NCBI GenBank assembly: GCA_947628155.1
Contig: CANQYQ010000001.1
Location: 1 to 59,954, forward strand
Length of the DNA stretch: 59,954 bases
DNA from: an uncultured Clostridia bacterium
GTDB lineage: Bacteria; Bacillota; Clostridia; UBA1381
Direction of reading: 5' to 3'
In this document: positions 9,770-58,471 of the stretch, piece by piece
How positions within the stretch are numbered: the first letter of the stretch is position 1
How the letters are laid out: every line of letters starts with the position of its first letter
Translations under genes and position numbers: made by a program
Notes under the pieces: generated by a model
The model's database searches: none
What the model saw: only the letters and a program-made list of their open reading frames with translations
Told to the model about the DNA's origin: nothing

Positions 9770-9899
9770 GACAATTCTCCATATTTAAGTGATTATTTTC
9801 TATTGTTATGGACTTATGAGAAGATTATAATACATATATAGGCAAATGTCAACATGGCTTGGGACAAATCGGCGAAATGGGTTTGGAAGGAGTGGAAAA

Positions 9900-12800
9900 A
9901 TGAGTATTAAAAGGATTACCGCCGCGGTATGCGCGGCGGCCGTGGCAGCGGCGGCGTTTGTCGTGCCGGTATCGGCCGCGTCGGCCGTATCGGATGAAGC
10001 GGGGTTTAATAACGCCATTGCTGCGGGCGGCGATTATGAGCTTTCGGCGGATATTTCGGCGGCGAACGCGGGGATCAACCAAACTCCGTCAACGGGTACG
10101 CTTGACGGCAAGGAGCATACGCTCACGAAAAAAAGTGATAAATGGGGCGACGCGGTGCTGTATCAAAATTGCAGCGGAAGCTGGACGTTTAAGAATCTGA
10201 CGATAGACGGAAACAAATCGGCAGGCACGTTTACCGACGCGGCGCTGTGGTACATGGCGGGGTCGGTAACATTCGACAATGTGACCATACAGAATTTCAA
10301 AACGTCAAACGCGGCGCGTTACGCGATTAACTGCAACAGCACCGCGAGCATGACGCTTAACAATGTGACGTTTAAGGATAACGAGAACGCGAACGCGGCG
10401 GTAACACCTTCCGATGTGTACATAGACGGCGGAACGCTCGCGCTTTCAGGAGACACCAAAGCGAACGTGTATTACGCGGGCGGCGCGATAGACGTATCGG
10501 GACTTACAAAAGGCTGCAGCGTCACGATCACGGCGGCGGACACGGATAAGTATAAATCGCTTAAATCGCTCGTCACGGCGGCGGCGGTTAAAATGACGGC
10601 GGACGACGGCGCGAGAACGGTAAGCTTTGCGGATTCCGGCGTGGAATGGGCATTGAGCGCGGAGCGGTCGAAATCGTCCGACGGTAAAGTTACCGTGTAC
10701 GCATCGGTATCGAATTTCACCGGCAGCGAAGCGACCGTGAGCGTGACGGCAGCCGCGTATGACGACGGCGCGGCGGGAGATACGCGGAGCGCGGACGTGA
10801 CCGTCGGGGCGAACGGTACAAAATCGGTTTCGATTGAGCTGAACGCATCGGACGAAAGCGTTATAAAGGTTAAGCTGACTTCATCGGGCAAGGATCTCAC
10901 GGATGAAATAACGGTAACCAAAATACGGGAGGACGGGCTGGTATTGTCATATGATTTTGACGATCCCGCCGACACAGCGTCACTTCTTCACGGCGGAGCA
11001 TCGATCGCGGGCGGTCAGGGCATATCCGGGAGCGCGCTGAGCCTTGACGGCACAAGCGGCTATATGCAGCTCCCCGACAATATACTTACCGAAAGCATGA
11101 CGGTTATGGCATGGGTTAAAACCGACGCCGTTCAGGACTGGGCGAGACTGTTCGACTTCGGTTCCGACACAAGCAATTATTTCTTTTACTCCCCTTCGAA
11201 CGGGCGCGTTGAATCGTGTCTTGGCGGAGCGAAGGATACAATGGACGTTACGCCGTTTACAAATACAGGAATATGGGAGCATCACGCGGTCGTGCGTTCG
11301 GCAGACCATGTTTGGCTCTACCGCGGCGGCAGTCTTGTAAGTGATAAAGCGTGCGCGAAATCGATCGCCGGTATTCCGAACACATCGAACTATATAGGCA
11401 AATCGCATTACGCGACGGACAAATACTTCAAGGGGACTATGGACGAGATGAAAATTTACAATAAAACCTGCACCGCCGGGGAAATCAAGGCGGAATACGA
11501 CAAATACGCGGCGCAGATAAGCACGGCCGCGGCTTATAAGGATTACGCCGACCTCGATTTCGGCACGACCGAGCTGACGGATGGCACGATCCTTCCGTCA
11601 AAGGGCGCCAACGGCAGCGATATTACATGGATGTGCTCCGACGCTTCCGTAATCGGCGCGGATATGACAATAACCGCTCCCGCCGCGGGAGAGGCGGATA
11701 AGCGTGTAACGCTTACGGCAACGATTAAAAACGGAAGCACTGTATATACAAAGGCGTTTGACGTGACGATCCTCGCCGCGCCGTCGATCACCGGACTTTC
11801 CGATTACAGCATGACGGATGTTGAAATGAAGGACGATTACCTTATAAACGGTACGGAAAAAATGGCCGCGTATCTGAACGATTTTGATATAAACAAGCTC
11901 GCGTCGGGATTCAGGCGCACGGCGGGACTGTCACAAACCTCAGACACGTACGGCGGCTGGGAAACAAGTCTTATCGCCGGTCACGCGGTAGGTCATTACA
12001 TGACCGCCGTCGCGCAGGGTTATAACAATACCGGCGACGAGGGATTGCTTAAAATGTCGAACGCGCTTATAGACGCGCTGTATGAAGCGCAGATCAAGGA
12101 GGACACGACCGTAAACGGCAATCCCGTAAAGAAGGGTTATCTGTTTGCGACCACAAATCCGTGGAGCGGCGGCAGGGTCGTAACGGGCGAAGGGCAGTTT
12201 GACAATATCGAAAATAATAAGGGAAATATCACAACAGAGGCGTGGGTGCCGTGGTACACGATGCATAAAATACTCGCGGGTCTTGTCGATACGTATAAGC
12301 TTACCGGCAACGAAAAGGCGCTCGAAATGGCCGACGCGCTCGGCACATGGGTTTACAACAGGGTCAAAAATTACGACGCGGCAATGCAGGCGCGCGTATT
12401 AAACATCGAGTACGGCGGCATGAACGACGCGCTTTACGAGCTGTACAAAATCACGAAAGACCCCAACCACGCTAAGGCGGCGCATATGTTTGATGAGATA
12501 AGCCTGTTCGACAGTCTGTATAACGGCGAGGACGTTTTGGCAAACAAGCACGCGAATACAACTATACCGAAAATTATCGGCGCGCTCAACCGCGTAAGAG
12601 CTATCGACGCGACGGGCGGTCAGCTTGAAAAGGACGCGCCCGACAGCGCGCATGACAGGGAATATTACCTCACTGTCGCGGAGAATTTCTGGGATATGGT
12701 CGTTAACGACCACTCGTACATCACCGGCGGCAACAGTGAGAACGAGCACTTCCGCGCGGCGCATACGGAAAACGCGTACCGCAATAACGTGAACTGCGAA

Positions 12801-14768
12801 ACGTGCAACACCTACAATATGCTAAAGCTCTCGCGCGAGCTGTATAAAATTACGGGAGAGAAGAAATATAAGGATTACTACGAGGGCACGTTCTTGAACG
12901 CAATCGTTTCGAGTCAGAACCCGGATACGGGTATGACGATGTACTTCCAGCCGATGGCGACGGGATATTTTAAGGTATATTCCACGCGCTGGAGCGACTT
13001 TTGGTGCTGCACCGGCTCGGGCATGGAGAATTTTACGAAGCTTACGGACAGTATTTATTACAAAAAGGATAATACGATAGTTGTAAATCAGTATATAAGC
13101 TCCGTGCTGACCGATACTGAGAACGGGATAAGGCTTACACAGGATTCGTCGCTGCCGGACGGGGATACGGCGAAATTGACAATCGAGCGTACGGATAAGG
13201 CCGCGTCGGATCGCGCATGGGCGTTGACGGCGCAAAAAACAGATGGCGGGAAAATAACCGGTACTATCACAAACAACAGCGGAAAGTCAAATAAGGCGGT
13301 CATTTATGCCGCGTCATATACCGCGAATAAGCTGACGGATGTGAAGAAGCTTGATTATACCATTGAAAACGGACAGACGCGGGAGTTTGAAACCGAGCTC
13401 AAAAACGGCGATGAGGTAAAGGTATTCCTCTGGGATGATAATCAAGCGCCGCTTGCCGACGCGGTAATTCCGGGTGAGCGGCAGGATGCCGGCCATACGG
13501 CGATAGCGCTGCGCGTGCCCGAATGGTGCGCGGCCGCGCCGATAATCAAGGTAAACGGCGAGGCTATTGAATATACGCGTTCGGCGGGCTACGTTACGAT
13601 AGACCGCGAGTGGAGCACGGGTGATACGGTCGAGATCACAATGCCGATGGAGATGCGCGCGTACGGACTTGCGGACAGCGATACGGTGACGGCGTTTAAA
13701 TACGGCCCGACTGTGCTGAGCGTCGGGCTGGGAGCGGGCGACACCGCGGAGGAAAGTCACGGTATGGCGGTCAGGAAGCCGAAAAATAAGGGCGACGTAA
13801 ACGAGTATGTTATAATCGACTCCGATTACGGTACGCGCGAAAAGTGGCTTGAACATATTAATGAGAACATGGTCAAAACCGACGGCAAGCTTGAATTTAC
13901 TATGCAAAATACCGATCAGGCGCTCGTGTTTACGCCGCATTATAGGCGTCACGGCGAACGCTACGGCATATATTGGTACGTGTCGGGCATGACCGAGGAG
14001 GAGCAGCAGGCGCAGATTTTAGCCGATAAGCAAAAGGGACGCGACGAGAATGTAATTATCGATTCAATTGAGCCGTCGCACGACCAGCAGGAGAACGGCC
14101 ACGGATATACGCAAGATAGATCCACCGGAGTAGAGGGTACGGGCGATATGGTAAATTACCGCGAAATCAAAAGCGGCGGATATGTAGATTACCAGATGGC
14201 GGTTAAAAAAGGCGTTAAGAATTATCTTTCGGTAACGTATCATTCAAGCGACGCCGGAAAGCAGATGACGATTTACGCCGGAGATGTGAAGCTTGCCGAC
14301 GTGACCGCGGGCGGTCAGAATGAAACGGTACGTTACGAGATCCCCGAGGCGGCCGTAAACGCGGCCGCGGCGTCAACGGCGGACACGATAAAGGGACGCG
14401 ACGCGCTGCATATTATATTCCGCGCGGACAAAAATACGGACGCGCCGAAAATATGCGGCACGGTCAAAATCGTGACCGATTACGGCACGAACGCTTCGCT
14501 TTCGGAGCTGACATTTGATAAGGGCGAGCTTTCGCCGGCGTTTAGTGCGGATACGGCGGAATATACGCTGAGTGTTCCGCCGGGTACGGAAAGCGTTAAT
14601 TTAAAAGCAGCTCCGGCGGACAAATACGGACTTGTGTATGTGAATGATATTCTGATAAACGACGCCGTGTCAAAGACCGTTCCCGTTTCGGAAGGGTTTA
14701 CGATCAGGGTTTACGCGGAGGATCATGAAACATCAAGGGAGTATACGATTACATTTGTAAAGCGGTAA
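9900..14768 (+). CDS. secreted multidomain glycoside hydrolase, GH127/GH146 (DUF1680, beta-L-arabinofuranosidase-like) core
   Basis: Start set at ATG 9900 (RBS GGAGTGG; signal peptide MSIKRITAAVCAAAVAAAAFVVPVSAASA). Domains by eye:
- N-terminal beta-helix-like region.
- LamG/concanavalin-like module (SALSLDG..YMQLP...ARLFDFG...GTMDEMKIY).
- Ig-like module.
- DUF1680 core with the Zn/catalytic Cys motifs CETCNTYNM and WCCTGSGMENF.
- C-terminal cadherin-like module (SLSELTFDKGELSPAFSADTAEYTLSV). Confidence 0.8.
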   Translation: MSIKRITAAVCAAAVAAAAFVVPVSAASAVSDEAGFNNAIAAGGDYELSADISAANAGINQTPSTGTLDGKEHTLTKKSDKWGDAVLYQNCSGSWTFKNLTIDGNKSAGTFTDAALWYMAGSVTFDNVTIQNFKTSNAARYAINCNSTASMTLNNVTFKDNENANAAVTPSDVYIDGGTLALSGDTKANVYYAGGAIDVSGLTKGCSVTITAADTDKYKSLKSLVTAAAVKMTADDGARTVSFADSGVEWALSAERSKSSDGKVTVYASVSNFTGSEATVSVTAAAYDDGAAGDTRSADVTVGANGTKSVSIELNASDESVIKVKLTSSGKDLTDEITVTKIREDGLVLSYDFDDPADTASLLHGGASIAGGQGISGSALSLDGTSGYMQLPDNILTESMTVMAWVKTDAVQDWARLFDFGSDTSNYFFYSPSNGRVESCLGGAKDTMDVTPFTNTGIWEHHAVVRSADHVWLYRGGSLVSDKACAKSIAGIPNTSNYIGKSHYATDKYFKGTMDEMKIYNKTCTAGEIKAEYDKYAAQISTAAAYKDYADLDFGTTELTDGTILPSKGANGSDITWMCSDASVIGADMTITAPAAGEADKRVTLTATIKNGSTVYTKAFDVTILAAPSITGLSDYSMTDVEMKDDYLINGTEKMAAYLNDFDINKLASGFRRTAGLSQTSDTYGGWETSLIAGHAVGHYMTAVAQGYNNTGDEGLLKMSNALIDALYEAQIKEDTTVNGNPVKKGYLFATTNPWSGGRVVTGEGQFDNIENNKGNITTEAWVPWYTMHKILAGLVDTYKLTGNEKALEMADALGTWVYNRVKNYDAAMQARVLNIEYGGMNDALYELYKITKDPNHAKAAHMFDEISLFDSLYNGEDVLANKHANTTIPKIIGALNRVRAIDATGGQLEKDAPDSAHDREYYLTVAENFWDMVVNDHSYITGGNSENEHFRAAHTENAYRNNVNCETCNTYNMLKLSRELYKITGEKKYKDYYEGTFLNAIVSSQNPDTGMTMYFQPMATGYFKVYSTRWSDFWCCTGSGMENFTKLTDSIYYKKDNTIVVNQYISSVLTDTENGIRLTQDSSLPDGDTAKLTIERTDKAASDRAWALTAQKTDGGKITGTITNNSGKSNKAVIYAASYTANKLTDVKKLDYTIENGQTREFETELKNGDEVKVFLWDDNQAPLADAVIPGERQDAGHTAIALRVPEWCAAAPIIKVNGEAIEYTRSAGYVTIDREWSTGDTVEITMPMEMRAYGLADSDTVTAFKYGPTVLSVGLGAGDTAEESHGMAVRKPKNKGDVNEYVIIDSDYGTREKWLEHINENMVKTDGKLEFTMQNTDQALVFTPHYRRHGERYGIYWYVSGMTEEEQQAQILADKQKGRDENVIIDSIEPSHDQQENGHGYTQDRSTGVEGTGDMVNYREIKSGGYVDYQMAVKKGVKNYLSVTYHSSDAGKQMTIYAGDVKLADVTAGGQNETVRYEIPEAAVNAAAASTADTIKGRDALHIIFRADKNTDAPKICGTVKIVTDYGTNASLSELTFDKGELSPAFSADTAEYTLSVPPGTESVNLKAAPADKYGLVYVNDILINDAVSKTVPVSEGFTIRVYAEDHETSREYTITFVKR

Positions 14769-19640: not shown

Positions 19641-20076
19641 GCTCTGCTAAGGCCCCCTTGTCAAAGAGGACTGGCGCGCGTAGCGCGACTGGGGGATTCC
19701 GCAATTACAGCAAATCGCTGCAATATGCGATATTCTGTAAAAATGAATCCCTCCACCCTTTCGATTTGCAAGCAAATCGAGTGGGTCCCCCTCCCTTTGA
19801 CAAGGGAGGCTAACGCCCGCCATATGCGATTTTGTGTGTGGAATCGCATTTCGTAGGGGCGGTCATCGGCCGCCCGTATTCCGTAACGTCGTATGGTATG
19901 CGGCGGGCGGCGAATCGCCGCCCCTAAGAAAGGCCCCCTTGTCAAAGAGGACTGGCGCGCGTAGCGCGACTGGGGGATTCCGCAATTACACCAAATCGTC
20001 GTAATATGCAGTATTCTGTAAAAATGAATCCCTCCACCGCCTTCGGCGGTCCCCCTCCCTTTAACAAGGGAGGCTA
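19641..20076. repeat. mosaic hairpin-rich intergenic repeat cluster (two MITE-like units plus linker hairpins)
   Basis: Two near-identical units, 19649-19812 and 19930-20076. Each is bounded by inverted CCCCTTGTCAAAGAGG / CCTCCCTTTRACAAGGG arms around a conserved core, GGGGATTCCGCAATTACA..AATATGC..TATTCTGTAAAAATGAATCCCTCC. GC-rich hairpins lie between them. The same family occurs at 37476-37930. Confidence 0.8.
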
Positions 20077-20146
20077 CACTCCCCACAGCCAAAAGCGCAT
20101 AAACATACATTTATATTATAAAATAAATCGAAAGGAGGAACCGCAC

Positions 20147-29179: not shown

Positions 29180-30621
29180 CTTGCGTACTCCCCGCATGTG
29201 TTTACAAAATTTACCGCCGTATCCGTATTTGCCCAAAAATGAAGATGGGGAAATCCCGCATACAGTGTCTTTGACGCGTGCGCGCATACATAATCGCCGC
29301 CGCGCGCTCTTTGCGCCGTAAACGCGCTGCCGCAGTCATAAGCGTTCCAGTAGTGGAACTCGCGCGAACGGATTTTTTCACCCCTTTTGCACAGAAGATT
29401 ATCCTCCCTCGCCGTCAGGGTAACGTACCCGAACCGCTGTAATTTATCAGTTTTGTACGCGTCGGTATCTATAACCCCGGCCATATCATACCGCCTTTTA
29501 TCCGCGCCCTCGAGCGTTTTACAAAGATACATAAATCCGCCGCACTCCGCTATCGTCGGCAGTCCGCCGTTAATTTTCGCTCTTATACCGTAAAGCATCG
29601 CCGTATTATCCGATAGAGCCGCCGCGTGAAGCTCCGGATATCCGCCGCCTATTATAAGTCCGCTTATGCCGTCCGGCAGTTTCTTGTCCGCAAGCGGTGA
29701 AAATTTTATAATTTCACATCCCAAAGAACGCAGCAAATCAAAATTATCCTCGTAGTAAAAGCAGAATGCTTTGTCATACGCGACAGCTATTTTAATCGGC
29801 CCGCGCGGCGGCATTGTACCGGGGACACTAAAATCGTCACACGCGCCTTTCGCGGAGCCGCTGAAATTGCCCGTCATCACGGGGACACTAAAATCGACGC
29901 CCGTTTTTGCATCGGGGACACTAAAACTCTCCGCCATGGGGACACTAAACCGCGCGCTTCCGGATTCGTTTGCGCAGCGGATCATATCGTCTATCCTAAG
30001 CGTTTTATCCGCCGTGCGGGCAAGAATATCAAGCTTTAATTGCAGGTTCTTGATTTCGTCCGCCGCGACAAGTCCGAGGCGGCGGCTTTCTATTGAATAT
30101 TCGGCGTTGTACGGCAAGTATCCGAAATATTGTGTGCCAAGCTCATCGCACATTTGCGCTGCCGCCGCTTCAAGGCTTTCGGGCAGCCGGTTAAAAATAA
30201 ATCCGGCGATGATGTTCGGCGTTTTGTACGTTAAAAACCCCTTCATCACCGCGCCTAATGATTCGCTCATACCCTTGCAGTCGATAACGATCACCGCCCG
30301 CGTTCCGGTACCGGCCGCCAGAGCGTGCGCCGAGGCCGTTCCGTTAACGCCGTCGTAGAAGCCCATGACCCCCTCGATCACGGAGATTTCGCCGGCGTTT
30401 TTTTGAAGCAGATAATTTACGGTGTTCTTATCGCACAGCCACGTATCAAGATTTCGCGATTTCGCGCCGATAACGCGGCTGTGGAACATCGGGTCGATAT
30501 AGTCCGGCCCGCATTTAAAGGCGGTAACGTCCATGCCGCGGTTTTTAAGCGCCTGTAAAACGGCGCATGTTACAGTCGTTTTGCCGCAGCCGCTGTGTGT
30601 GCCGGCGATCATAATTCTCAT
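29167..30621 (-). CDS. cbiA: cobyrinate a,c-diamide synthase, with an unusual FSVP-repeat insert in the interdomain linker
   Basis: Start set at ATG 30621 (MRIMIAGTHSGCGKTTVTCAVLQAL; ATGA overlap with the cbiET stop). The C-terminal GATase domain has AECGGFMYL. The insert is encoded by 29821-29949. Confidence 0.92.
   Translation of the reverse strand: MRIMIAGTHSGCGKTTVTCAVLQALKNRGMDVTAFKCGPDYIDPMFHSRVIGAKSRNLDTWLCDKNTVNYLLQKNAGEISVIEGVMGFYDGVNGTASAHALAAGTGTRAVIVIDCKGMSESLGAVMKGFLTYKTPNIIAGFIFNRLPESLEAAAAQMCDELGTQYFGYLPYNAEYSIESRRLGLVAADEIKNLQLKLDILARTADKTLRIDDMIRCANESGSARFSVPMAESFSVPDAKTGVDFSVPVMTGNFSGSAKGACDDFSVPGTMPPRGPIKIAVAYDKAFCFYYEDNFDLLRSLGCEIIKFSPLADKKLPDGISGLIIGGGYPELHAAALSDNTAMLYGIRAKINGGLPTIAECGGFMYLCKTLEGADKRRYDMAGVIDTDAYKTDKLQRFGYVTLTAREDNLLCKRGEKIRSREFHYWNAYDCGSAFTAQRARGGDYVCAHASKTLYAGFPHLHFWANTDTAVNFVNTCGEYARWKE
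29821..29949 (+). repeat. four same-strand copies of GGGGACACTAAA(A) inside cbiA
   Basis: Copies start at 29821, 29881, 29914 and 29938, with spacings of 60, 33 and 24 nt. On the coding (minus) strand each reads TTT AGT GTC CCC, which is F-S-V-P. Confidence 0.9.
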
Positions 30622-37395: not shown

Positions 37396-37475
37396 ATGCT
37401 CCTCCATTAGATTTATGTTTATATGGTCGCGCCGGTTCGGCGATTTGTTAACAATGCTGCGAAAAAAGTTCCGGT

Positions 37476-37930
37476 AACGCCCGCCGTATACGAAATCAAT
37501 CACTTGCGCCCCTTGTTAAAGGGGGAGGCTAACGCCCGCCGTATGCGATTTTCGCTCACGGGAACGCTCTGCTTGCGCCCCTTGTTAAAGGGGAGGCTAA
37601 CGACCGCCATGTGCAATTTCGCTCACGGGGACGCTCTGCTTGCGCCCCTTGTTAAAGGGGAGAGGGCCAACGAAGTTGGCGAGGGGATTCCGCAATCACA
37701 CCAAATCGCTGCAATATGCGATATTTTGCAAAAATGAATCCCTCCGTCATTTGCTCCCTGCGGTCGCAAATGCCACCTCCCTTTGACAAGGGAGGCTAAC
37801 ACTCGCCGTATGCGAAATCACTCACGGGGACGCTCTGCTTACGCCCCTTGTTAAAGGGGAGGCTAACGCCCGCCGTATTCCATATCGTGTTACGGAACAC
37901 GGGCGGCCGATGGCCGCCCCTACGGTGTTT
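37476..37930. repeat. mosaic intergenic repeat cluster inside the cob supra-operon (same family as 19641-20076)
   Basis: Four copies of a 60-70-bp unit, TTGCGCCCCTTGTTAAAGGGGAGGCTAACGCCCGCCGTATGCGA...CTCACGGGGACGCTCTGC, start at 37504, 37573, 37640 and 37849. One MITE-like unit (about 37640-37798) carries the GGGGATTCCGCAAT...GAATCCCTCC core. The terminal hairpin GGGCGGCCGATGGCCGCCC is the reverse complement of 19856-19876. Confidence 0.8.
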
Positions 37931-42321: not shown

Positions 42322-42520
42322 TTTCGTACCGAACAAAGGGCAGGTCTCCCGGCTCATACATCAGGCGTTTCAAAAGAGCCTTCCCGGTTTTACCCAGTGG
42401 CGTAATTCTCCGAAACTACGTAATCACGGTGACGAGTTCGCGCGGGATTTTCACCCGCTTCCCTTTTCACCTGAACCAACTCCGGAAACTCCGGAATCTC
42501 AGGCACCCTTCGTCATTATT
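42322..42520 (-). promoter_or_regulatory. cobalamin (B12) riboswitch
   Basis: The minus strand reads ...GGTTCAGGTGAAAAGGGAAGCGGGTGAAAATCCCGCGC...GCCACTGGGTAAAACCGGGAAGGC...GAGCCGGGAGACCTGCC. These are the conserved GGUGAAAAGGGAA / GUGAAAAUCC core and a B12 box (AGCCGGGAGACCTGCC). Confidence 0.88.
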
Positions 42521-42533
42521 TAATTGTGAATGT

Positions 42534-47532: not shown

Positions 47533-48906
47533 CTATTCCTCCTCATCATCGGAGCTGCCGGCCGGTTCTGTGACAGACGTACCGTCGACCGATGTGCGGG
47601 TCGTACTGCCCGTGCGCTGTTCGTTAATAATCGAACCGTTGCCCGTAAGACCCGATGAACTATCAGATTCATCAGATTCGTCGGAATCCGATGAGCCTGA
47701 CGAACTCGATGAGCCTGACGAACCCGATGAGCTCGATGAGCCTGACGAACTCGATGAGCCTGACGAACCCGACGAGCTTGACGAACCCGATGAGCTTGAC
47801 GAATCTGACGAGCTGTCGTCATCATATGATGAATCAATATATGCCGATGAGCTGTAGTCCTCGCCGCTGCCATCAGAATCCTCGCTGTCGGTATAATCGG
47901 AGTATGTACCATCGCCCGTCATGGACGGGTCGGAGGATGGTGTGGGTTCAAGATACGGCATTTCATCAAGGCGCTTGAACACATAGCCCTCGGATATCAG
48001 GTATTCGATAATTGAGCTCAATCCCTCCGCTGTCGCTGTTTTGGCCGCGGCGTCATGCATAAGCACGACCGTGCTTGAATCGGTATCGAGATTGCTCTGG
48101 AGATATTCCAAAAGCTCCTGTGAGTTTTTCTTTCGGCCCTCCGCGTCGCCGTTCAGTGAGTTCCAGTCAATATAATAGAAGCCGTTGGCGGCAAGCGTGT
48201 TTTTGTATACCTGCTTCTCGGACGCGTGATCGCCCGCGTTGTAGCTGCCGCCCGGGAAACGAAACAGCTTCATATGGTGGTCGCCGTTTGTGATATTTGA
48301 TATTATCTCCTCTGTTTCCTGGACCTCGCTCATAAACGATTCCTCGGTCGCATATAATGTCTCATAGTTATGACCGTTGGAGTGATTTGCTATAAGATGT
48401 CCCTCCTCATATACTCGGCGCGCGAGATCGGGATAAGAATTAATGGACGTTCCGAGCATGAAAAACGTCGCCTTAATATTGTATCGGCGCAGTGTATCAA
48501 GGATAATCGGAGTGGTGTTCTCCGCCGGACCGTCGTCAAATGTCAGGTACGCGGTTTTTTCCGCGCCTTGTTCGTCCAGATCCATGATTATATCAAGAAG
48601 GTCATTTTCCTCTTCCGCCGGAGGCAGAAGCGTCGCCGCGCTCGGAACGGGAGTAGGAGCGAGAGGATCGATCGTCGGCTGAGCCGTAACTTCCGCCGTA
48701 TCCGTATCCGCGTTTACCGCTTCGCTGCCGTTTTTATTGCGGCACGAAACAAACGCCAGTATAATAAGCGCTATTACCGCTATAAAAATCACAAACAGCA
48801 ATAACGCGCGTATTCTTTTCTTACGCCGTCTCTCGCGGCGTCTGCGCTCCGCTCTGCGCGCTTCAAGACTTCTTGGTTTGTTTTGATTTGTCTGATTAGC
48901 AGCCAC
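47533..48906 (-). CDS. membrane-anchored polysaccharide deacetylase (CE4) with a Ser/Asp-rich C-terminal tail
   Basis: Basic N-terminus and one TM (ALLLFVIFIAVIALIILAFV). NodB domain (YLTFDDGP..., HSNGHNY, LMHD). The tail is SSSDSSSSSGSSSSSGSSGSSSSSG.... The start is ambiguous. GTG 48906 has a GGGGGA RBS, whereas the ORF-track TTG at 48930 has none. Confidence 0.82.
   Translation of the reverse strand: MAANQTNQNKPRSLEARRAERRRRERRRKKRIRALLLFVIFIAVIALIILAFVSCRNKNGSEAVNADTDTAEVTAQPTIDPLAPTPVPSAATLLPPAEEENDLLDIIMDLDEQGAEKTAYLTFDDGPAENTTPIILDTLRRYNIKATFFMLGTSINSYPDLARRVYEEGHLIANHSNGHNYETLYATEESFMSEVQETEEIISNITNGDHHMKLFRFPGGSYNAGDHASEKQVYKNTLAANGFYYIDWNSLNGDAEGRKKNSQELLEYLQSNLDTDSSTVVLMHDAAAKTATAEGLSSIIEYLISEGYVFKRLDEMPYLEPTPSSDPSMTGDGTYSDYTDSEDSDGSGEDYSSSAYIDSSYDDDSSSDSSSSSGSSSSSGSSGSSSSSGSSSSSGSSGSSSSSGSSDSDESDESDSSSGLTGNGSIINEQRTGSTTRTSVDGTSVTEPAGSSDDEEE
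47660..47815. repeat. imperfect 18-bp tandem repeats encoding the poly-Ser/Gly/Asp tail
   Basis: The plus strand reads GATGAGCCTGACGAACTC / GATGAGCCTGACGAACCC / GATGAGCTC / GATGAGCCTGACGAACTC / GATGAGCCTGACGAACCC / GACGAGCTTGACGAACCC / GATGAGCTTGACGAATCT.... Confidence 0.8.
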
Positions 48907-49051
48907 TGTAATTCCCCCATTTTTCAACAAATATCGTGTACATATTTTATTATATACTACTTTTTCAAAAAATTCAACATTAATTTATACATATTTGAAA
49001 ATATATTCCGCATATATATGAAATATAACAAAAAAACGGGAGGTTATAAAA

Positions 49052-49924: not shown

Positions 49925-50005
49925 CCACTTTATTTTTCCGGCAAACGGGTGTATAATGAAAACAACAGGATAAATTCAGGTAATCCACAAGAAGGAGATA
50001 AGATT

Positions 50006-52813
50006 ATGGATATCAGCTTTGATTTCGGAAGCAAGCCCCCCGCAGACGGGTACATAAAAATCACGGGACGCACGATCTATAATGAGGAGCGCGGCTACGG
50101 CATATTGCGCCGCGCGCAGGCAATGCTCAGGACGAGCGGCGAAAACCCCATTATGCGTGATTTTCTGATAATGGATCAGAACGCGTTTAAGGTAAAAATC
50201 CCTAACGGGATGTACAAGATCCGTATCGCGCTGGGTGATTATGAGGATGAGGGCGACGTTACTACGGTGTTCAAGATAAACGGCGAGGAGCAGCACTCAT
50301 GGGTGCACGACAGCACGGTTATCGAGCGTTTTCACGAGGTCGAGGTAACGAACGGCGAGATTTTGTTTGAGTTTTCCGGCAAGCATCCGGCGCTTAACGC
50401 GATCGATATCGCCCAGAAGCGATGGCTTAAAATGACGCCGGTCGAGTGGAGCGCATGCGCGAAGCCGGAATGCCCGTCCATTACGCTTACATGGCCTCCG
50501 GTCGAAGGTTCGCACGGTTATCAGATTACGCGCCGCAATATGCGCAATAATGAGCATGATATAGTAAGGAATGTATACACCGAAAGCTATACGGATACAA
50601 ACGTGCATTTGTGCAAGAGGTATGAATACAATGTGTATCCGCTCTATTCCAACAAGTTCCGCGGCTCAAACCACTGCACGGTTATGGCCGAGGTCGTTGA
50701 CGGCGGCGAGGTAAAGGGCGAAATTACGAACCTTGAGGCGGTGACCCGCCTTAAATCGGTCACACTTTTATGGGACAGCACATATGACGCGGCGTTTTAC
50801 AATATTTATCAGAAAGCGCCCTACGGCAAGGAAAAGCTTATCGGCACTACGCGCGAATGCCGCTTTATTGACGCGGATGTTGATACCGTCGTTCCGTTTA
50901 CATACGCGGTGGAGGCGTGCACTCCGCACGGATATTCGCCGAAATATGAGGTCGAAAGCTACGTGTTCGACAAGCCGATGAAAAGGAAGATGGAAACTCT
51001 GAGCCGCGCTCTTATCGCGGTGCCGACGAAGGACGGCGTATTTTTAAGCTGGCGCCTGCAGGCGTATGAATATAAGCTCGGCATGAGCTTTGTGCTGTTC
51101 AGAAACGGTAAAAAAATCACCGGCGTGATCGGCGGCGCGACAAACTATCTCGATAAGGACGGCAAGCGGGGCGATACATATACCGTAAAGGCCGTATTAA
51201 ACGGCAAAATGGAAAAAGAAGGATACAGCGCCAAGGTATGGGAGCATGAGTATCTGTCGATACCGCTTGACAAGCCGGCCGATTTCATATCGCCGCGCGG
51301 ACGCGTGCATGAATACACGGCCAACGACGCATCGATCGCGGATCTGGACGGCGACGGCGAATACGAAATTGTGCTGCGCTGGGACGCGAACGGCAAGGAT
51401 AATTCGCATAAGGGCTTCAGCGGAAACTGTATTCTTGACGCGTATAAGCTCGACGGCACGAAGCTTTGGCGAATCGATTTGGGCAGAAATATCCGCGCCG
51501 GTCAGCATTATACGCAGTTCATGGTTTACGACTTCAACAACGACGGCAAGGCGGAATTAATATGCAAAACCGCCGACGGCACGGTTGACGGCGTGGGCAA
51601 CGTTATAGGCACGGCGTCCGCCGATTACCGCAACAGCGATGGGTTTATTCTCGAGGGCCGCGAATTTTTGACGATGTTCCGCGGCGATACCGGAGAGATC
51701 ATGGATACGGTCGAATACGACCCGCCGCGCGGCAATGTCGCGGATTGGGGCGACAGCTGGGGCAATCGCTGCGACCGCTACCTTGCGTGCGTTGCGTATC
51801 TTGACGGCGTTAACCCGAGCGTTGTTATGTGCCGCGGCTATTACGACCACGGCAGACCGACATATCTTGTGGCGTGGGATATTATCGACAACAAGCTTGT
51901 AAAACGCTGGAAATTCGTCGCGGATCATACGCATAATATCGAATATACATTCCAGGGCAACCATAATCTCGGCGTGGGAGACGTTGACGGCGACGGCAAG
52001 GATGAGATAATTTACGGCTCTATGGCGGTCGATCACGACGGTACGGGTATGTACACGACCGGGCTTATGCACGGCGACTGTATTAACGTAGGCAAATTCC
52101 GCCCCGACGGCGATGGCCTTGACTGCTTCCAGATACATGAGGAAATGGAGGCGGAATACGGCTTTGAGGTCCACGACCCGGCTACGGGCGAGATCAAATG
52201 GGGAAGGTTCACCGGACGCGATACCACGCGCGGCCTGTGCGCGAAAATCGATCCGCGCTATCCGGGCAACCAGTGCTGGGTAATGGACGACGGCATATAT
52301 ACCATGGATGGCGAATTGATTAACGAAAAAGGCCCGGAGTCGATAAACTTCGCGATATGGTGGGACGGCGACCTTATCCGCGAGCTGCTCGACCATGAAT
52401 TTGATGACACGATCCGCTGCGGACGGCCTAAAATATACAAGTGGGATTATGAGAACAACAAGCTCAAAACGATACTCGACCCCGTCGGGACATTGTCCAA
52501 TAACTGGAAGAAGGGTACGCCCTGTATTCAGGCGGATATATTCGGCGATTGGCGCGAACAGGCGGTATGGAGAAATTACGATGATACAGAGCTTCGTATT
52601 TATACCTCGACAGATATAACCGAGCATAGGTTCTATACGCTTATGCATGACCCCGTGTACCGCTTGTCGGTTGCGTGGCAGAATACGGCGTATAACCAGT
52701 GCACACAGACGGGCTTCTATATCGGACCGGATATGAAGGAAATCCCCGTGCCGGATAATGATTATGTGCGCGGCGAAATTCTCCCCGAATTTACGGAAGA
52801 AATCGACGAATAA
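50006..52813 (+). CDS. rhamnogalacturonan lyase (PL11, YesW/YesX-like beta-propeller) with an N-terminal CBM-like module and two FN3-like modules
   Basis: Start set at ATG 50006 (RBS GAAGGAG). The core has ANDASIADLDGDGEYEIVLRWD, YKLDGTKLWRIDLGRNIRAGQHYTQFMVYDFNNDGKAE and GDVDGDGKDEIIYGS, which are FG-GAP/YesW hallmarks. No signal peptide is seen. Confidence 0.85.
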   Translation: MDISFDFGSKPPADGYIKITGRTIYNEERGYGILRRAQAMLRTSGENPIMRDFLIMDQNAFKVKIPNGMYKIRIALGDYEDEGDVTTVFKINGEEQHSWVHDSTVIERFHEVEVTNGEILFEFSGKHPALNAIDIAQKRWLKMTPVEWSACAKPECPSITLTWPPVEGSHGYQITRRNMRNNEHDIVRNVYTESYTDTNVHLCKRYEYNVYPLYSNKFRGSNHCTVMAEVVDGGEVKGEITNLEAVTRLKSVTLLWDSTYDAAFYNIYQKAPYGKEKLIGTTRECRFIDADVDTVVPFTYAVEACTPHGYSPKYEVESYVFDKPMKRKMETLSRALIAVPTKDGVFLSWRLQAYEYKLGMSFVLFRNGKKITGVIGGATNYLDKDGKRGDTYTVKAVLNGKMEKEGYSAKVWEHEYLSIPLDKPADFISPRGRVHEYTANDASIADLDGDGEYEIVLRWDANGKDNSHKGFSGNCILDAYKLDGTKLWRIDLGRNIRAGQHYTQFMVYDFNNDGKAELICKTADGTVDGVGNVIGTASADYRNSDGFILEGREFLTMFRGDTGEIMDTVEYDPPRGNVADWGDSWGNRCDRYLACVAYLDGVNPSVVMCRGYYDHGRPTYLVAWDIIDNKLVKRWKFVADHTHNIEYTFQGNHNLGVGDVDGDGKDEIIYGSMAVDHDGTGMYTTGLMHGDCINVGKFRPDGDGLDCFQIHEEMEAEYGFEVHDPATGEIKWGRFTGRDTTRGLCAKIDPRYPGNQCWVMDDGIYTMDGELINEKGPESINFAIWWDGDLIRELLDHEFDDTIRCGRPKIYKWDYENNKLKTILDPVGTLSNNWKKGTPCIQADIFGDWREQAVWRNYDDTELRIYTSTDITEHRFYTLMHDPVYRLSVAWQNTAYNQCTQTGFYIGPDMKEIPVPDNDYVRGEILPEFTEEIDE

Positions 52814-54462: not shown

Positions 54463-54479
54463 TTTAATACGACAATGCG

Positions 54480-54509
54480 CAGAGCCGGATTTTTGTTCGG
54501 CTCTGTTTG
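54480..54509 (+). terminator. rho-independent terminator upstream of fhs
   Basis: CAGAGCCG-gatttttgtt-CGGCTCTG followed by TTTG. Confidence 0.75.
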
Positions 54510-54530
54510 AGTTTAAAGGAGGAATTTAAA

Positions 54531-56198
54531 ATGTTATCCGATATAGAAATCGCGCAGGCGGCGAAAATGAATCATATACGCGACGTCGCGGCGTCCTTGG
54601 GTATAGATGAGGACGAGCTTGAATATTACGGCAAGTACAAGGCAAAGCTTGGCGTTGACGTATGGAAGAAATTTGGCAGTAATAAAGACGGCAAGCTTGT
54701 GCTCGTTACGGCGATCAATCCCACCCCCGCGGGCGAGGGCAAGACCACGACAACTATAGGCTTGGGCGACGCCCTGTCGCGCATGGGTAAAAAATGCGTG
54801 CTCGCGCTGCGCGAGCCGTCTCTCGGCCCGGTCATGGGTGTTAAAGGCGGCGCGGCCGGCGGCGGTTACAGCCAGGTCGTGCCTATGGACGATATAAACC
54901 TGCATTTTACGGGCGATATGCACGCGATAACAGCGGCAAATAATTTGCTGTCGGCAATGATCGACAATCATATCCATCAGGGCAACGAGCTCGATATTGA
55001 CGTTACGAATATAGTATGGAAGCGCGTGGTCGACACTAATGACCGCGCTTTGAGGAAAATAGTAGTCGGCATGGGCGGACATATAAACGGTGTACCACGC
55101 GAGGACGGGTTTATGATCACGGTCGCGTCGGAGGTTATGGCGATATTGTGCCTCGCGAGCGATATGGACGATTTGAAGCGCCGGTTCGGCGAGATTATAA
55201 TCGGTTATAACCGTGCCGGTCAGCCGGTCAAGGCGTCGGATCTGCACGCCGAGGGCGCTATGGCCGCGCTTATGAAGGACGCGATTCACCCGAATCTTGT
55301 TCAAACGCTTGAGCATACGCCGTGCCTTATCCACGGCGGGCCGTTCGCGAATATCGCGCATGGCTGCAACAGCGTCCAGGCGACGACCCTCGCGATGAAG
55401 ATGGCCGACTACACGATCACCGAGGCGGGTTTCGGCGCCGATTTGGGCGCGGAGAAGTTTATGGATATAAAGTGCCGCATGGCCGGAATTAAGCCAGACG
55501 CGGTGGTCATTGTCGCGACGGTGCGCGCGCTTAAATATAACGGCGGCGTGAAAAAGACCGATTTAAAAGCGCCGAATCTTGACGCGCTTAAAAAGGGAAT
55601 TGTAAATCTTGAAAAGCATATTGAAAATATGAAGAGGTTTGGCGCGCCCGTGGTCGTCGCGGTCAATCGTTTCGATACGGACAGCGATGAGGAGCTGAGA
55701 TATATAATCGACCGCTGCGCTGAACTCGGCGCGGACTGCGCCCTTTCGGAGGTGTTCGCAAAGGGCGGCGAAGGCGGATTGGAGCTTGCCCAAAAGGTAC
55801 TCGCGGCAATGGAAACGCCGTCGGAATATCATCCGGTTTACGATGTCAACGACAGCATAACCGATAAAATCAACGCGATTGTAACAAAAATTTACGGCGG
55901 CGCGGGAGTTGAGTATTCGGCTAAGGCGAAAAAGGCAATAAAGAAGCTTGAAGAGCTCGGCCTTGACAAAAAACCCGTCTGCATAGCGAAAACGCAATAC
56001 TCCCTTTCCGATGACCAAACACTTTTGGGCCGCCCCGAGGAATTCACGGTCAATGTGAGCGAAATACGCGTATCGAACGGCGCGGGATTTATCGTGGCGG
56101 AAACGGGAAATATTATGGTAATGCCCGGGCTTCCGAAGGTTCCGGCCGCGAACAATATAGATATTGACAGCGACGGCGTAATTTCCGGCTTGTTCTGA
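54531..56198 (+). CDS. fhs: formate--tetrahydrofolate ligase
   Basis: Start set at ATG 54531 (RBS AAGGAGG lies inside the longer TTG-initiated ORF). [11 protein letters not shown]......[17 protein letters not shown]... is canonical FTHFS. 555 aa. Confidence 0.96.
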
Positions 56199-56200
56199 TA

Positions 56201-56293
56201 GGGGACACTAAATCCATGGGGACACTAAATTATATCTCAAACGATCCCGAAGACACAAAAAAAATCGCGTCGGATTTTTCGGGGACACTAAAA
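56201..56293 (+). repeat. three same-strand copies of GGGGACACTAAA at the fhs/tsaE junction and in the 5' end of tsaE
   Basis: Copies at 56201-56212 (intergenic, 2 nt after the fhs TGA), 56218-56229 (tsaE codons 2-5, read G-T-L-N) and 56281-56293 (read G-T-L-K). The 12-mer is identical to the one in cbiA. Confidence 0.9.
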
Positions 56294-56656
56294 CCCGGAA
56301 GCGTGGTATGCCTTTACGGCGGTCTTGGCGCGGGAAAAACCGCGTTTGTGCAGGGCCTCGCTAAGGGCCTGGGCGTGACGGAATATATTACCAGTCCGAC
56401 GTTTACAATTGTGAACGTGTATGAAAGCGGACGCGTGCCGCTGTATCATTTTGATATGTATCGGCTTGCCGACTGTGACGAGGCGTATGAGATAGGGTAC
56501 GAGGAATACGTTTACGGCGGCGGAATAAGCGTTATGGAATGGCCGGAAAACGTTGCGGATATTTTGCCGGAGAGCCGTTATGATATAACGATCTCAAAGG
56601 ATGATGGCCGCGGCACGGATTTTAGGAAAATAGACATTATAAAGGTAGGAAAATGA
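56216..56656 (+). CDS. tsaE: tRNA t6A37 biosynthesis ATPase TsaE
   Basis: LYGGLGAGKTAFVQGLAKGLG..SPTFT.VN.Y......YHFDMYRL are TsaE/YjeE hallmarks. 146 aa. Confidence 0.9.
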   Translation: MGTLNYISNDPEDTKKIASDFSGTLKPGSVVCLYGGLGAGKTAFVQGLAKGLGVTEYITSPTFTIVNVYESGRVPLYHFDMYRLADCDEAYEIGYEEYVYGGGISVMEWPENVADILPESRYDITISKDDGRGTDFRKIDIIKVGK

Positions 56657-57788: not shown

Positions 57789-57805
57789 TATTATTATGGC
57801 ATTTT

Positions 57806-57836
57806 AAAGGGGGTATTTACACATGCCCCCTTTGTA
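57806..57836 (+). terminator. probable terminator after rpiB
   Basis: AAAGGGGG-tatttacacat-GCCCCCTTT followed by a T-rich tract. Confidence 0.5.
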
Positions 57837-57934: not shown

Positions 57935-58471
57935 TTAAAATCGTATCATGTATTTATTAAATCTTTGTGAAACAAATATGTCAATATGATGTAAAAAATA
58001 TTCGTTTTTGCCTTTGTATGCGGACGGAGAATACACACGCGTGTTGCTATCAACATATTTTTCATCGCAGTCCCACAGCCTTCCGAGTATTTGTTCTGAC
58101 GAAAGGACAATATCGGGATTTTTCATAAACATACAAAGCAGCCTATATTCGCCCGCCGTCAAATCGATGCGTTCACCGTTCTTATATACCTCGCCCTTTA
58201 ACAGCTTTATGGTTATCCCGTTTGAGCTAAGCTCCGTATCGTTTCTAAACCCGCCGCTTCTGCAAAGTGCCGCGTTTATCCGCGACATCAAAACCGATAG
58301 CTTAAACGGCTTTGTAATATAGTCGTCGCCGCCGATGTCAAGACCCATTATAATATCCGTTTCCTCGTCCGCGGCGGTCAGAAATATGATCGGCACTTTA
58401 GACGCTTCACGGATTTTTTTTGCAAATGTCAAACCCGCTGCCCTCGGGGAGCGATACGTCCAAGCTTTCAA
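57935..58471 (-). pseudogene. remnant of an OmpR-family response regulator (receiver N-terminus missing, C-terminus degenerate)
   Basis: The sequence retains ...KIREASKVPIIFLTAADEETDIIMGLDIGGDDYITKPF (receiver beta4-alpha5) and the winged-helix region LTAGEYRLLCMFMKNPDIVLSSEQIL..LWD. There is no phospho-acceptor Asp region and no ATG. The ORF starts right after the pspC terminator. The tail after YVDSNT does not resemble the usual ...TV.IRRLR.K.. motif. Confidence 0.6.

Follow-up and report, generated by a model that had tools for sequence, protein, structure and literature searches.

Why does the same 12-nt word recur, exactly and in clusters, in two unrelated housekeeping genes? The question arose from a 59,954-nt stretch of a contig of an uncultured Clostridia bacterium (CANQYQ010000001.1, assembly GCA_947628155.1; the whole stretch is called the window below), in which an initial annotation had noticed clustered copies of GGGGACACTAAA at the fhs/tsaE junction and within cbiA, and had suspected either a function at the nucleic-acid level or a means of spread. 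This suspicion is upheld by the findings that the word is read in many frames, overrides codon preference and is widely enriched. In our analysis it would best be filed with the hyper-abundant, lineage-specific genomic words that resemble the DNA uptake sequences (DUS), the uptake signal sequences (USS) and the highly iterated palindrome HIP1. Exact matching found seven copies in the window, all on the plus strand, against 0.01 expected, and none of 100 dinucleotide-preserving shuffles reached seven. Neighbouring copies are separated by 5, 12, 21, 48 and 51 nt. When mismatches were allowed, the window yielded no one-mismatch copy and a lone two-mismatch match, which is the chance level.

Three of the copies lie at the fhs/tsaE junction on the plus strand (56201–56212, 56218–56229 and 56281–56292), and exact matching bore out both these sites and the readings first assigned to them. 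The gene fhs (54507–56198, plus strand; Pfam FTHFS), encoding formate-tetrahydrofolate ligase, opens an fhs-tsaE-tsaB-rpiB operon that is flanked by terminator-like hairpins (54479–54506 and 57805–57834). Pfam supports the identity of tsaE (56216–56656, plus strand; 146 aa, matched over residues 9–130) and also those of TsaB and RpiB. Copy 1 is intergenic, begins 2 nt after the fhs TGA stop (56196–56198) and has orthologous copies in the related loci L067 and L010. Its GGGGA (56201–56205) stands 10 nt upstream of the tsaE ATG (56216–56218) and qualifies as a purine-rich Shine-Dalgarno sequence. Inspection of the upstream region agreed with the initial annotation that AGGGGA (56200–56205) is the sole Shine-Dalgarno-like sequence 5′ of this ATG, and G-rich sequences of the GGGG(A) type are frequent before other genes of the window. 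Copy 1 probably serves as the ribosome-binding site of tsaE. Copy 2 takes as its first letter the G of the tsaE ATG and its remainder reads G-T-L-N, so that TsaE starts M-G-T-L-N, while copy 3 is read as G-T-L-K inside FSGTLKPGSVV, a variable segment directly preceding the GGLGAGKT Walker A motif.

Comparison of the fhs-tsaE spacers among relatives revealed copies in at least four other genomes, the window, L067, L010, L087 and L088 carrying two or three each at this junction. In the relatives the last copy is non-coding and adjoins the tsaE ATG, as GGGGACACTAAA-ATG or AGGGACACTAAA-ATG, and the TsaE of the window is three residues longer at its N-terminus (MGT) than those of L067, L010 and L088. 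We infer that the ancestral ATG was lost in the window through a deletion of about 5 nt, and that the spacer letters tccat together with the first G of copy 2 supplied a replacement. With the ancestral ATG lost and the new one in use, copy 2 would make up codons 1–5 and TsaE would therefore gain its three N-terminal residues; copy 2 would then be an earlier ribosome-binding-site copy captured into the coding sequence. For copy 3, the ungapped alignment of SGTLKPG with SQTLNSG (L067) and AKRLKAG (L010), at unchanged length, indicates an origin through substitution. In the same operon, the window and L067 have tsaB overlapping rpiB by ATGA; three relatives carry two or three copies of the word at this place (L010 645–690, L087 6805–6850 and L088 1157–1185), the first copy providing the TAA stop of tsaB and the last adjoining the rpiB ATG.

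The predicted RNA fold of 56185–56300 was no better than that of shuffled sequences (z −0.44). An intrinsic terminator at the tsaE cluster was rejected on this score, with all three copies direct and the site within an operon, and a promoter or terminator role of the junction was rejected as the junction is internal to the operon. A CRISPR array was rejected as well, given the 12-nt unit, the gaps of 2–5 nt in arrays, the irregular gaps in the window and the copies within genes. Among known RNA families and tRNAs, the window contains only a cobalamin riboswitch and a tRNA-Lys, both away from the junction.

The remaining four copies (29821–29832, 29881–29892, 29914–29925 and 29938–29949) are also on the plus strand and are antisense to cbiA. 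This minus-strand gene reads the word in the opposite sense, as the initial annotation had stated, and does so four times as FSVP (residues 264–267 for the copy at 29821 and 225–228 for that at 29938). All four fall in a linker between the protein's domains (approximate bounds 29806–29949, minus strand); Pfam confirmed CbiA and GATase_3, with the domains stopping at residue 176 and resuming at residue 277. The protein has 484 aa, compared with 440–478 aa in the other 119 homologues among the matches listed, and in alignments with its closest relatives its copy-bearing linker exceeds theirs by about 41 residues. At the copy at 29938 the closest homologue has TTT ACC GCG CCG (FTAP) where the window has TTT AGT GTC CCC. 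The four-copy array is unique to the window, and L058 and L099 carry one sense copy, read as GDTK, in the same linker. A search for a donor of the insertion within the sampled loci found no similarity beyond the word itself, an exact-sequence look-up of the window CbiA returned no other contig, and the predicted RNA fold of the cbiA cluster was no better than shuffles. The antisense cluster in cbiA is an exception, most of the ORF-called (open reading frame) coding copies that we counted being on the sense strand. The cobalamin-biosynthesis operons of relatives (L058 and L056 from Lapin-008 bin90, and L099 from Lapin-030 bin80) have 11–13 copies per 8 kb, all on the plus strand of the block and mostly sense, and the window orthologues only the four antisense copies in cbiA. 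The cobalamin riboswitch of the window (Rfam RF00174, 103.5 bits; 42322–42525, minus strand) lies upstream of a run of minus-strand genes that includes cobalamin-biosynthesis genes and cbiA.

How far the word extends beyond these two genes was addressed with a scan of GTDB r232, in which each species was represented by a single genome, for pairs of copies at most 30 nt apart; it returned at least 114 blocks of 8 kb. The copy counts given below cover these blocks and the window, 0.93 Mb in all, and refer to loci selected for clustered copies, not to whole genomes. Among the matches listed, the carriers comprise about 17 species-level Clostridia genomes related to Hominilimicola and Ornithomonoglobus. 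Their hosts are rabbit (nearly all blocks), goat, chicken (Candidatus Ornithomonoglobus) and human (a Hominilimicola sp. and others), and they come from several independent studies. The window aligns to several carrier blocks at 66–84% DNA identity, and the word is identical throughout. We counted 430 exact copies where 0.11 are expected, an enrichment that reaches beyond the two loci in which the word was first seen. The word is lineage-wide and not peculiar to two housekeeping genes; the clustering reported for those genes stands, and their apparent exclusivity does not, since at least 114 blocks in about 17 genomes share it. Groups of two to four copies are common also elsewhere: at a linking distance of 130 nt there were 50 single copies, 74 clusters of two, 55 of three and 25 of four.

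One-mismatch copies (107) are fewer than exact ones. In 61 of them the sole difference is that the G at position 1 is replaced by A, which leaves the 11-mer GGGACACTAAA as the core; copies with two mismatches come near a rough random expectation. The commonest variants, AGGGACACTAAA, GGGGACAGTAAA and GGGGACACAAAA, are scattered over many genomes and mark no particular one. Coding and non-coding copies share their flank preferences, by which the word becomes Y-GGGGACACTAAA-A-Y (a pyrimidine at −1, A at +12 and a pyrimidine at +13). The longer string CCATGGGGACACTAAA is indeed common to 56214–56229 and 29934–29949, as first noted; its shared 4-nt flank is unremarkable because the seven copies make 21 pairs and pyrimidines are preferred at position −1.

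Matches in Tepidisphaeraceae (L104) and Doudnabacteria (L116) were rejected as carriers, as they are unrelated local tandem duplications. A search of 2.9 million viral contigs (IMG/VR) with pair and hairpin patterns gave no match and phage and plasmid collections gave nothing significant, the coverage of these hosts' phages being uncertain in both. A scan of metagenomes with the hairpin pattern was dominated by one lone terminator of an unrelated AT-rich human-gut organism, which made up 13 of 15 matches (L119–L127 and L129–L132); it is the same 26-nt palindrome, GGGGACACTAAA-NN-TTTAGTGTCCCC, at one locus in 13 samples, and a rough estimate suggests that a terminator-shaped sequence could have converged on it by chance. 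Literature searches for GGGGACACTAAA and its reverse complement found unrelated primers only, and searches for reports of uptake sequences or iterated words in Firmicutes, Clostridia or Bacillota found none. We found no description of such a word in any Gram-positive in the literature searched, and in our analysis it appears to be new.

Before any function is considered, it has to be asked whether the copies reflect an artefact, contamination, chance, or selection on the encoded peptides GDTK and GTLK. A single rabbit-gut study of metagenome-assembled genomes supplies most matches, as might be expected of an artefact. However, the TsaE protein of the window has exact matches in three ENA metagenome assemblies and in a single Logan assembly built from a public run, and the DNA across the three junction copies is 100% identical over 301 aligned nt in these four independent assemblies. 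Because independent assemblies hold identical DNA and protein, the junction copies are not an assembly artefact, and the misassembly that the initial annotation had allowed for is not what was found. Carriers stem also from goat, chicken and human studies, and the copies respect reading frames and occupy orthologous sites, whereas chance would supply 0.01 copies per window.

Selection on the peptides is answered by the distribution of copies within genes. Of the 430 copies, 215 are intergenic, 196 coding and 19 at boundaries, though about 91% of the DNA is ORF. In the sense orientation the word is read as GGG GAC ACT AAA (GDTK) in 113 copies and as G GGG ACA CTA AA (GTLK/N) in 65; the third sense frame reads xGH-stop, the TAA of the word being the stop codon of 17 ORFs of at least 100 codons. 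The antisense frames give FSVP (10 copies) and LVSP (8 copies), partly in spurious ORF calls. GDTK is the commonest tetrapeptide of the sampled loci, and 113 of its 119 occurrences (95%) are encoded by the exact word, which is one of 64 possible encodings and uses rare codons (GGG 0.49%, ACT 0.42%, CTA 0.15%). A null based on codon usage expects 0.007 GDTK, 0.001 GTLK, 0.003 FSVP and 0.002 LVSP, so that both orientations are more than 1000-fold enriched, the sense orientation 5–20 times more so. The word is upheld at the level of DNA whichever strand or reading frame it falls in, and codon preference is overridden. The earlier view that conservation acts on DNA or RNA and not on protein is confirmed by the three sense and two antisense frames, the non-coding spacers and the single GDTK encoding. 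A peptide-level reading fails on the five frames, the non-coding copies and the uniform encoding, and together with artefact and chance it is effectively refuted; we give this whole group of explanations almost no credence.

The antisense coding counts are upper bounds, since the crude ORF caller behind them called spurious ORFs on the antisense strand, as it did opposite rpiB in L010 and L087. Long opposite-strand ORFs reading the word as FSVP or LVSP occur in L010 (171–677, plus strand), L087 (6385–6837, plus strand) and L105 (5198–5617, minus strand); the first two are antisense to rpiB and therefore spurious, and the call in L105 is doubtful.

Conservation was gauged with those copies alone that cannot have served as seeds of the scan. 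We found the exact word at the orthologous site in 13 of 43 cases at 60–70% flank identity (0.4 expected), in 6 of 16 at 70–80% (0.4 expected), in 14 of 23 at 80–90% (5.4 expected) and in 85 of 101 at 90–97% (39 expected). Copies outlast the divergence of their flanks at orthologous sites.

The alignments also show two routes by which new copies arise. Along the first, sites already close to the word, among them native ribosome-binding sites and loop codons, are turned into it by substitution, as in TsaE (SQTLNSG or AKRLKAG against SGTLKPG) and CbiA (FTAP against FSVP). The native rpiB ribosome-binding site GGGGGAATTAAAATG fits the word plus ATG at 12 of 15 positions, and exact copies replace it in L010, L087 and L088. 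Along the second route, tandem arrays gain or lose whole units of 14–17 nt; between close relatives, indels of whole units measure 14–17 nt in intergenic arrays and 15 nt in coding sequence. The lineage of the window is word-poor, with unrelated sequence at most sites where relatives carry copies. Its seven copies are exact and its cbiA array is unique, so the process seems to be active, or to have been so recently, in this lineage too.

Such conversions bring to mind neutral replenishment by biased repair or gene conversion, through a short-patch process linked to nicks, mismatches or methylation (compare HIP1 and the very short patch words), under which the copies need no function. The multi-substitution changes from FTAP to FSVP, from QTLN to GTLK and from a native ribosome-binding site to the word fit this explanation, as do the enrichment of both orientations and the large excess of exact over decayed copies. 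The same changes, however, require up to 5–8 substitutions per 12–21 nt, beyond one single-mismatch repair step, and the orientation rules and the arrays are left unexplained. A specificity of 12–15 nt also lies, to our knowledge, far beyond any short-patch repair context. We consider replenishment by repair improbable.

Between genes the copies follow rules of orientation. In spacers of convergent genes the usual layout is a stop codon, then one to three sense copies with gaps of 2–5 nt, then an inverted copy 2 nt further on. The gap of convergent copy pairs is exactly 2 nt in 42 of 47 cases, and adjacent divergent pairs are absent; in spacers of co-directional genes we found no array containing antisense copies. 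Arrays begin 0–30 nt past stop codons, run in the direction of the upstream gene and are built of regular units of 14–17 nt. The inverted pair, found mainly between convergent genes, is predicted to form a stem of about 12 bp (−27 to −30 kcal/mol, z about −5), and its flanks are A-rich upstream and T-rich downstream, at 6.1 of 10 positions on each side. These tracts largely derive from adjacent copies, which supply ...CTAAAAC on one side and GTTTTAG... on the other. By these predictions the inverted pairs would be terminator-like. At gene starts, copies adjoin the ATG of long ORFs at distance 0 in 17 cases and at distance −1 in 4, giving a layout of GGGGA, a 7-nt spacer and ATG.

A layout of this kind could be that of a cis site at which a protein specific to the lineage binds DNA or RNA, acting in chromosome organisation, in termination or as a roadblock, or at mRNA 3′ ends, and kept by ordinary selection; the arrays would then reflect cooperative binding and the 26-bp palindrome a dimer site. 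The regular units, the exact 2-nt inverted spacing, the placement and orientation of arrays just past stop codons, the strong sense bias in genes and co-directional spacers and the equal flank preferences of coding and non-coding copies all speak for such a site. So does the strict conservation at orthologous sites, an argument that has been used in the HIP1 literature for selection over neutral replenishment. Against it, many single copies sit in ordinary enzyme loops with rare codons and are hard to justify one by one, and the clusters in tsaE and cbiA lack structure or regulatory context. Antisense coding copies, including the four exact ones in the cbiA linker, are more than 1000-fold enriched, which argues against a purely RNA-level reading, and no candidate protein was identified. 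On balance a protein-binding site strikes us as rather unlikely, if worth keeping in view.

Whole-unit indels and inverted pairs raise the further prospect of a mobile repeat, in which the unit or the inverted pair is copied by a REP-associated tyrosine transposase (RAYT)-like, other HUH or recombinase enzyme, in the manner of repetitive extragenic palindromes (REPs), their REPIN doublets or miniature inverted-repeat transposable elements. Close relatives differ by units of 14–17 nt, the cbiA cluster lies within a lineage-specific insertion of about 41 codons, the inverted pairs look like REP doublets, and the presence in the same genomes of classical REP-like repeats with GTAG plus hairpin means that they may possess machinery of this kind. 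REPs and bacterial interspersed mosaic elements resemble our word in being short repeats at gene ends, between convergent genes, whose direct and inverted arrangements form hairpins. They are, however, extragenic imperfect palindromes of about 20–40 nt with a GTAG head, whereas the word is a 12-nt non-palindrome that has neither self-complementarity nor such a head. Moreover, 196 of 430 copies (about 45%) are within ORFs, many of them made by substitution at constant length. Replication slippage would produce unit indels within arrays just as well, and nothing else in the sampled loci resembles the spacers of the cbiA insertion. We therefore think it unlikely that the word spreads as a mobile element.

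The strand bias could instead be that of a polar chromosomal signal, of the Chi (AddAB) type or of the type of the FtsK-orienting polar sequences (KOPS) and SpoIIIE recognition sequences (SRS), with the excess of sense copies following from the co-orientation of genes and replication. All seven window copies are on the plus strand even though cbiA is on the minus strand, the roughly 10:1 excess of sense copies is comparable in size to the gene-strand bias of Bacillota, and one copy per few kb is a Chi-like density. Chi, KOPS and SRS are over-represented, oriented words as well, occurring once per few kb and for the most part on the coding or leading strand. Yet abutting inverted pairs (42) are the commonest intergenic arrangement, and they would work against a polar signal. 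By a local proxy taken from blocks of 8 kb, which does not tell replication from transcription, genes that oppose the local majority still have more sense than antisense copies (11 against 9), at least three of the nine antisense ones being on spurious ORFs opposite rpiB and four more on a doubtful ORF. Chi and KOPS motifs have 5–8 nt and are not known to form tandem arrays, which also counts against a signal of this type; nor are Chi, KOPS or SRS known to be clustered or paired head to head, and their few-fold enrichment, that of Chi included, is far exceeded by the roughly 4000-fold enrichment here. A polar signal appears very improbable.

These considerations lead us to favour, tentatively and with somewhat less than even confidence, a DNA-level word that resembles the DUS and USS and has been locally co-opted. 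DUS/USS-like recognition is favoured because these words show the closest known behaviour, namely the share of copies in terminators, the bias in frame and orientation and the single word of a family. About half of DUS and USS copies have been reported to lie in predicted terminators, and most inverted pairs in terminators; coding copies are biased by frame and orientation, with a sense excess in genes of roughly 2:1, and one word is common to a family. The DUS of Neisseriaceae (Neisseria) and the USS of Pasteurellaceae (Haemophilus) are, like the word described here, non-palindromes of 9–12 nt that are thousands-fold over-represented and identical across a family-level clade. Again like our word, they occur on both strands with about half of the copies intergenic, form terminator-like hairpins past genes as inverted pairs, and appear in coding sequence in a few tolerated frames with one preferred orientation.

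The maintaining force would be a strand-symmetric, sequence-specific preference acting on double-stranded DNA. Word-bearing DNA would be preferentially taken up and recombined, and by this molecular drive the word would build up wherever it is tolerated. It may be tolerated, and even locally useful, because it is modular: GGGGA could act as a Shine-Dalgarno sequence, CACTAAA as the spacer before an ATG and TAA as a stop codon, while an inverted pair 2 nt apart would give a hairpin with a G+C-rich base to which adjacent copies could add A and U tracts. Three considerations, all of them arguments only, might account for part of the sense bias. Ribosome-binding sites and purine-rich coding strands would offer near-matches in the sense orientation; GDTK and GTLK are probably better tolerated in loops than FSVP and LVSP; and a short spacer might accept a copy only when it doubles as a ribosome-binding site. 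A more ambitious proposal is that this clade of Gram-positive gut Clostridia evolved a sequence-specific tag of self DNA equivalent to the DUS and USS, the first outside Proteobacteria, with a 12-nt word shaped to double as gene punctuation and hence saturating short spacers as tandem and inverted arrays. This we regard as possible, and advance with more reserve.

Several observations weigh against uptake as the maintaining force. Uptake in the Gram-positives that have been studied (B. subtilis and S. pneumoniae) is, as far as we know, independent of sequence. The host here is a Gram-positive anaerobe, in which no uptake specificity is known, unlike those of the DUS and USS; among the window proteins that were scanned, none is a competence protein. 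The word is sparser and clumpier than the DUS and USS, at 0.12 per kb in the window and 0.25–0.75 per kb in blocks selected for a cluster, against about 1 per kb. Tight direct tandem arrays (units of 14–17 nt, gaps of 2–5 nt) are no described feature of the DUS or USS, and the sense excess in genes, about 10:1 or more, is much stronger than their 2:1 and than the 1.6:1 of a codon null. That arrays in co-directional spacers were not found to contain antisense copies needs the added argument on ribosome-binding sites. No dialects were seen among the carriers, and the lineage of the window itself is poor in the word. Unlike the DUS and USS, moreover, the word systematically doubles as a Shine-Dalgarno sequence with its spacer and as a stop codon.

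Two other words share some of these traits. HIP1 of cyanobacteria (GCGATCGC) is also a hyper-abundant short word in and between genes, conserved at orthologous positions beyond expectation, for which selection and biased repair have been debated; it is, however, an 8-nt palindrome tied to orphan methyltransferases, without tandem arrays, terminator pairs or strand orientation. The TAACTGA repeats of Beggiatoaceae and cyanobacteria resemble our word as a short exact word with two to six direct copies a few nucleotides upstream of start codons, shared across lineages. They differ in being contiguous heptamers that are essentially intergenic, with one indirect repeat described, and they occur neither in coding sequence at scale nor in terminator hairpins.

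The window has further features. Two intergenic patches (19649–20093 and 37475–37924) are dense in other repeats, with the hairpin units GCGCCCCTTGTTAAAGGGGAGGC and GGGCGGCCGATGGCCGCCCCTAC (a hairpin plus CTAC/GTAG, REP-like); the patches have segments of 58–109 nt in common, direct and inverted, and related genomes hold similar GTAG-hairpin repeats. The minus-strand gene 47533–48930 codes for a polysaccharide deacetylase whose C-terminus is a low-complexity tail rich in Ser, Gly and Asp (SSSSSGSSGSS...), the product of a 9-nt tandem repeat (47666–47827). A response-regulator ORF with a TTG start (57935–58471, minus strand) matches the receiver profile only from position 53 and may have lost part of its 5′ end or carry a frameshift there. 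A pectin-degrading organism, similar to Monoglobus or Hominilimicola, is indicated by two enzymes, a large GH127 beta-L-arabinofuranosidase that has lectin and cadherin-like domains (9846–14768) and a PL11 rhamnogalacturonan lyase (49949–52813).

If the word does guide uptake, sequence-biased transformation would have arisen independently in Gram-positive gut anaerobes, and an uncultured pectin-degrading lineage could be manipulated genetically by means of the word. The word reshapes proteomes irrespective of the force behind it, and ribosome-binding sites, stop codons and terminators are built from one module. It is a sharp taxonomic marker for binning genomes of the carrier clade, and it is also a source of annotation errors, in the form of spurious antisense ORFs, which automatic annotation may miscall, and of misplaced starts. 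The clade that carries it provides a natural system for the question, raised by HIP1, USS and DUS alike, of selection versus molecular drive.

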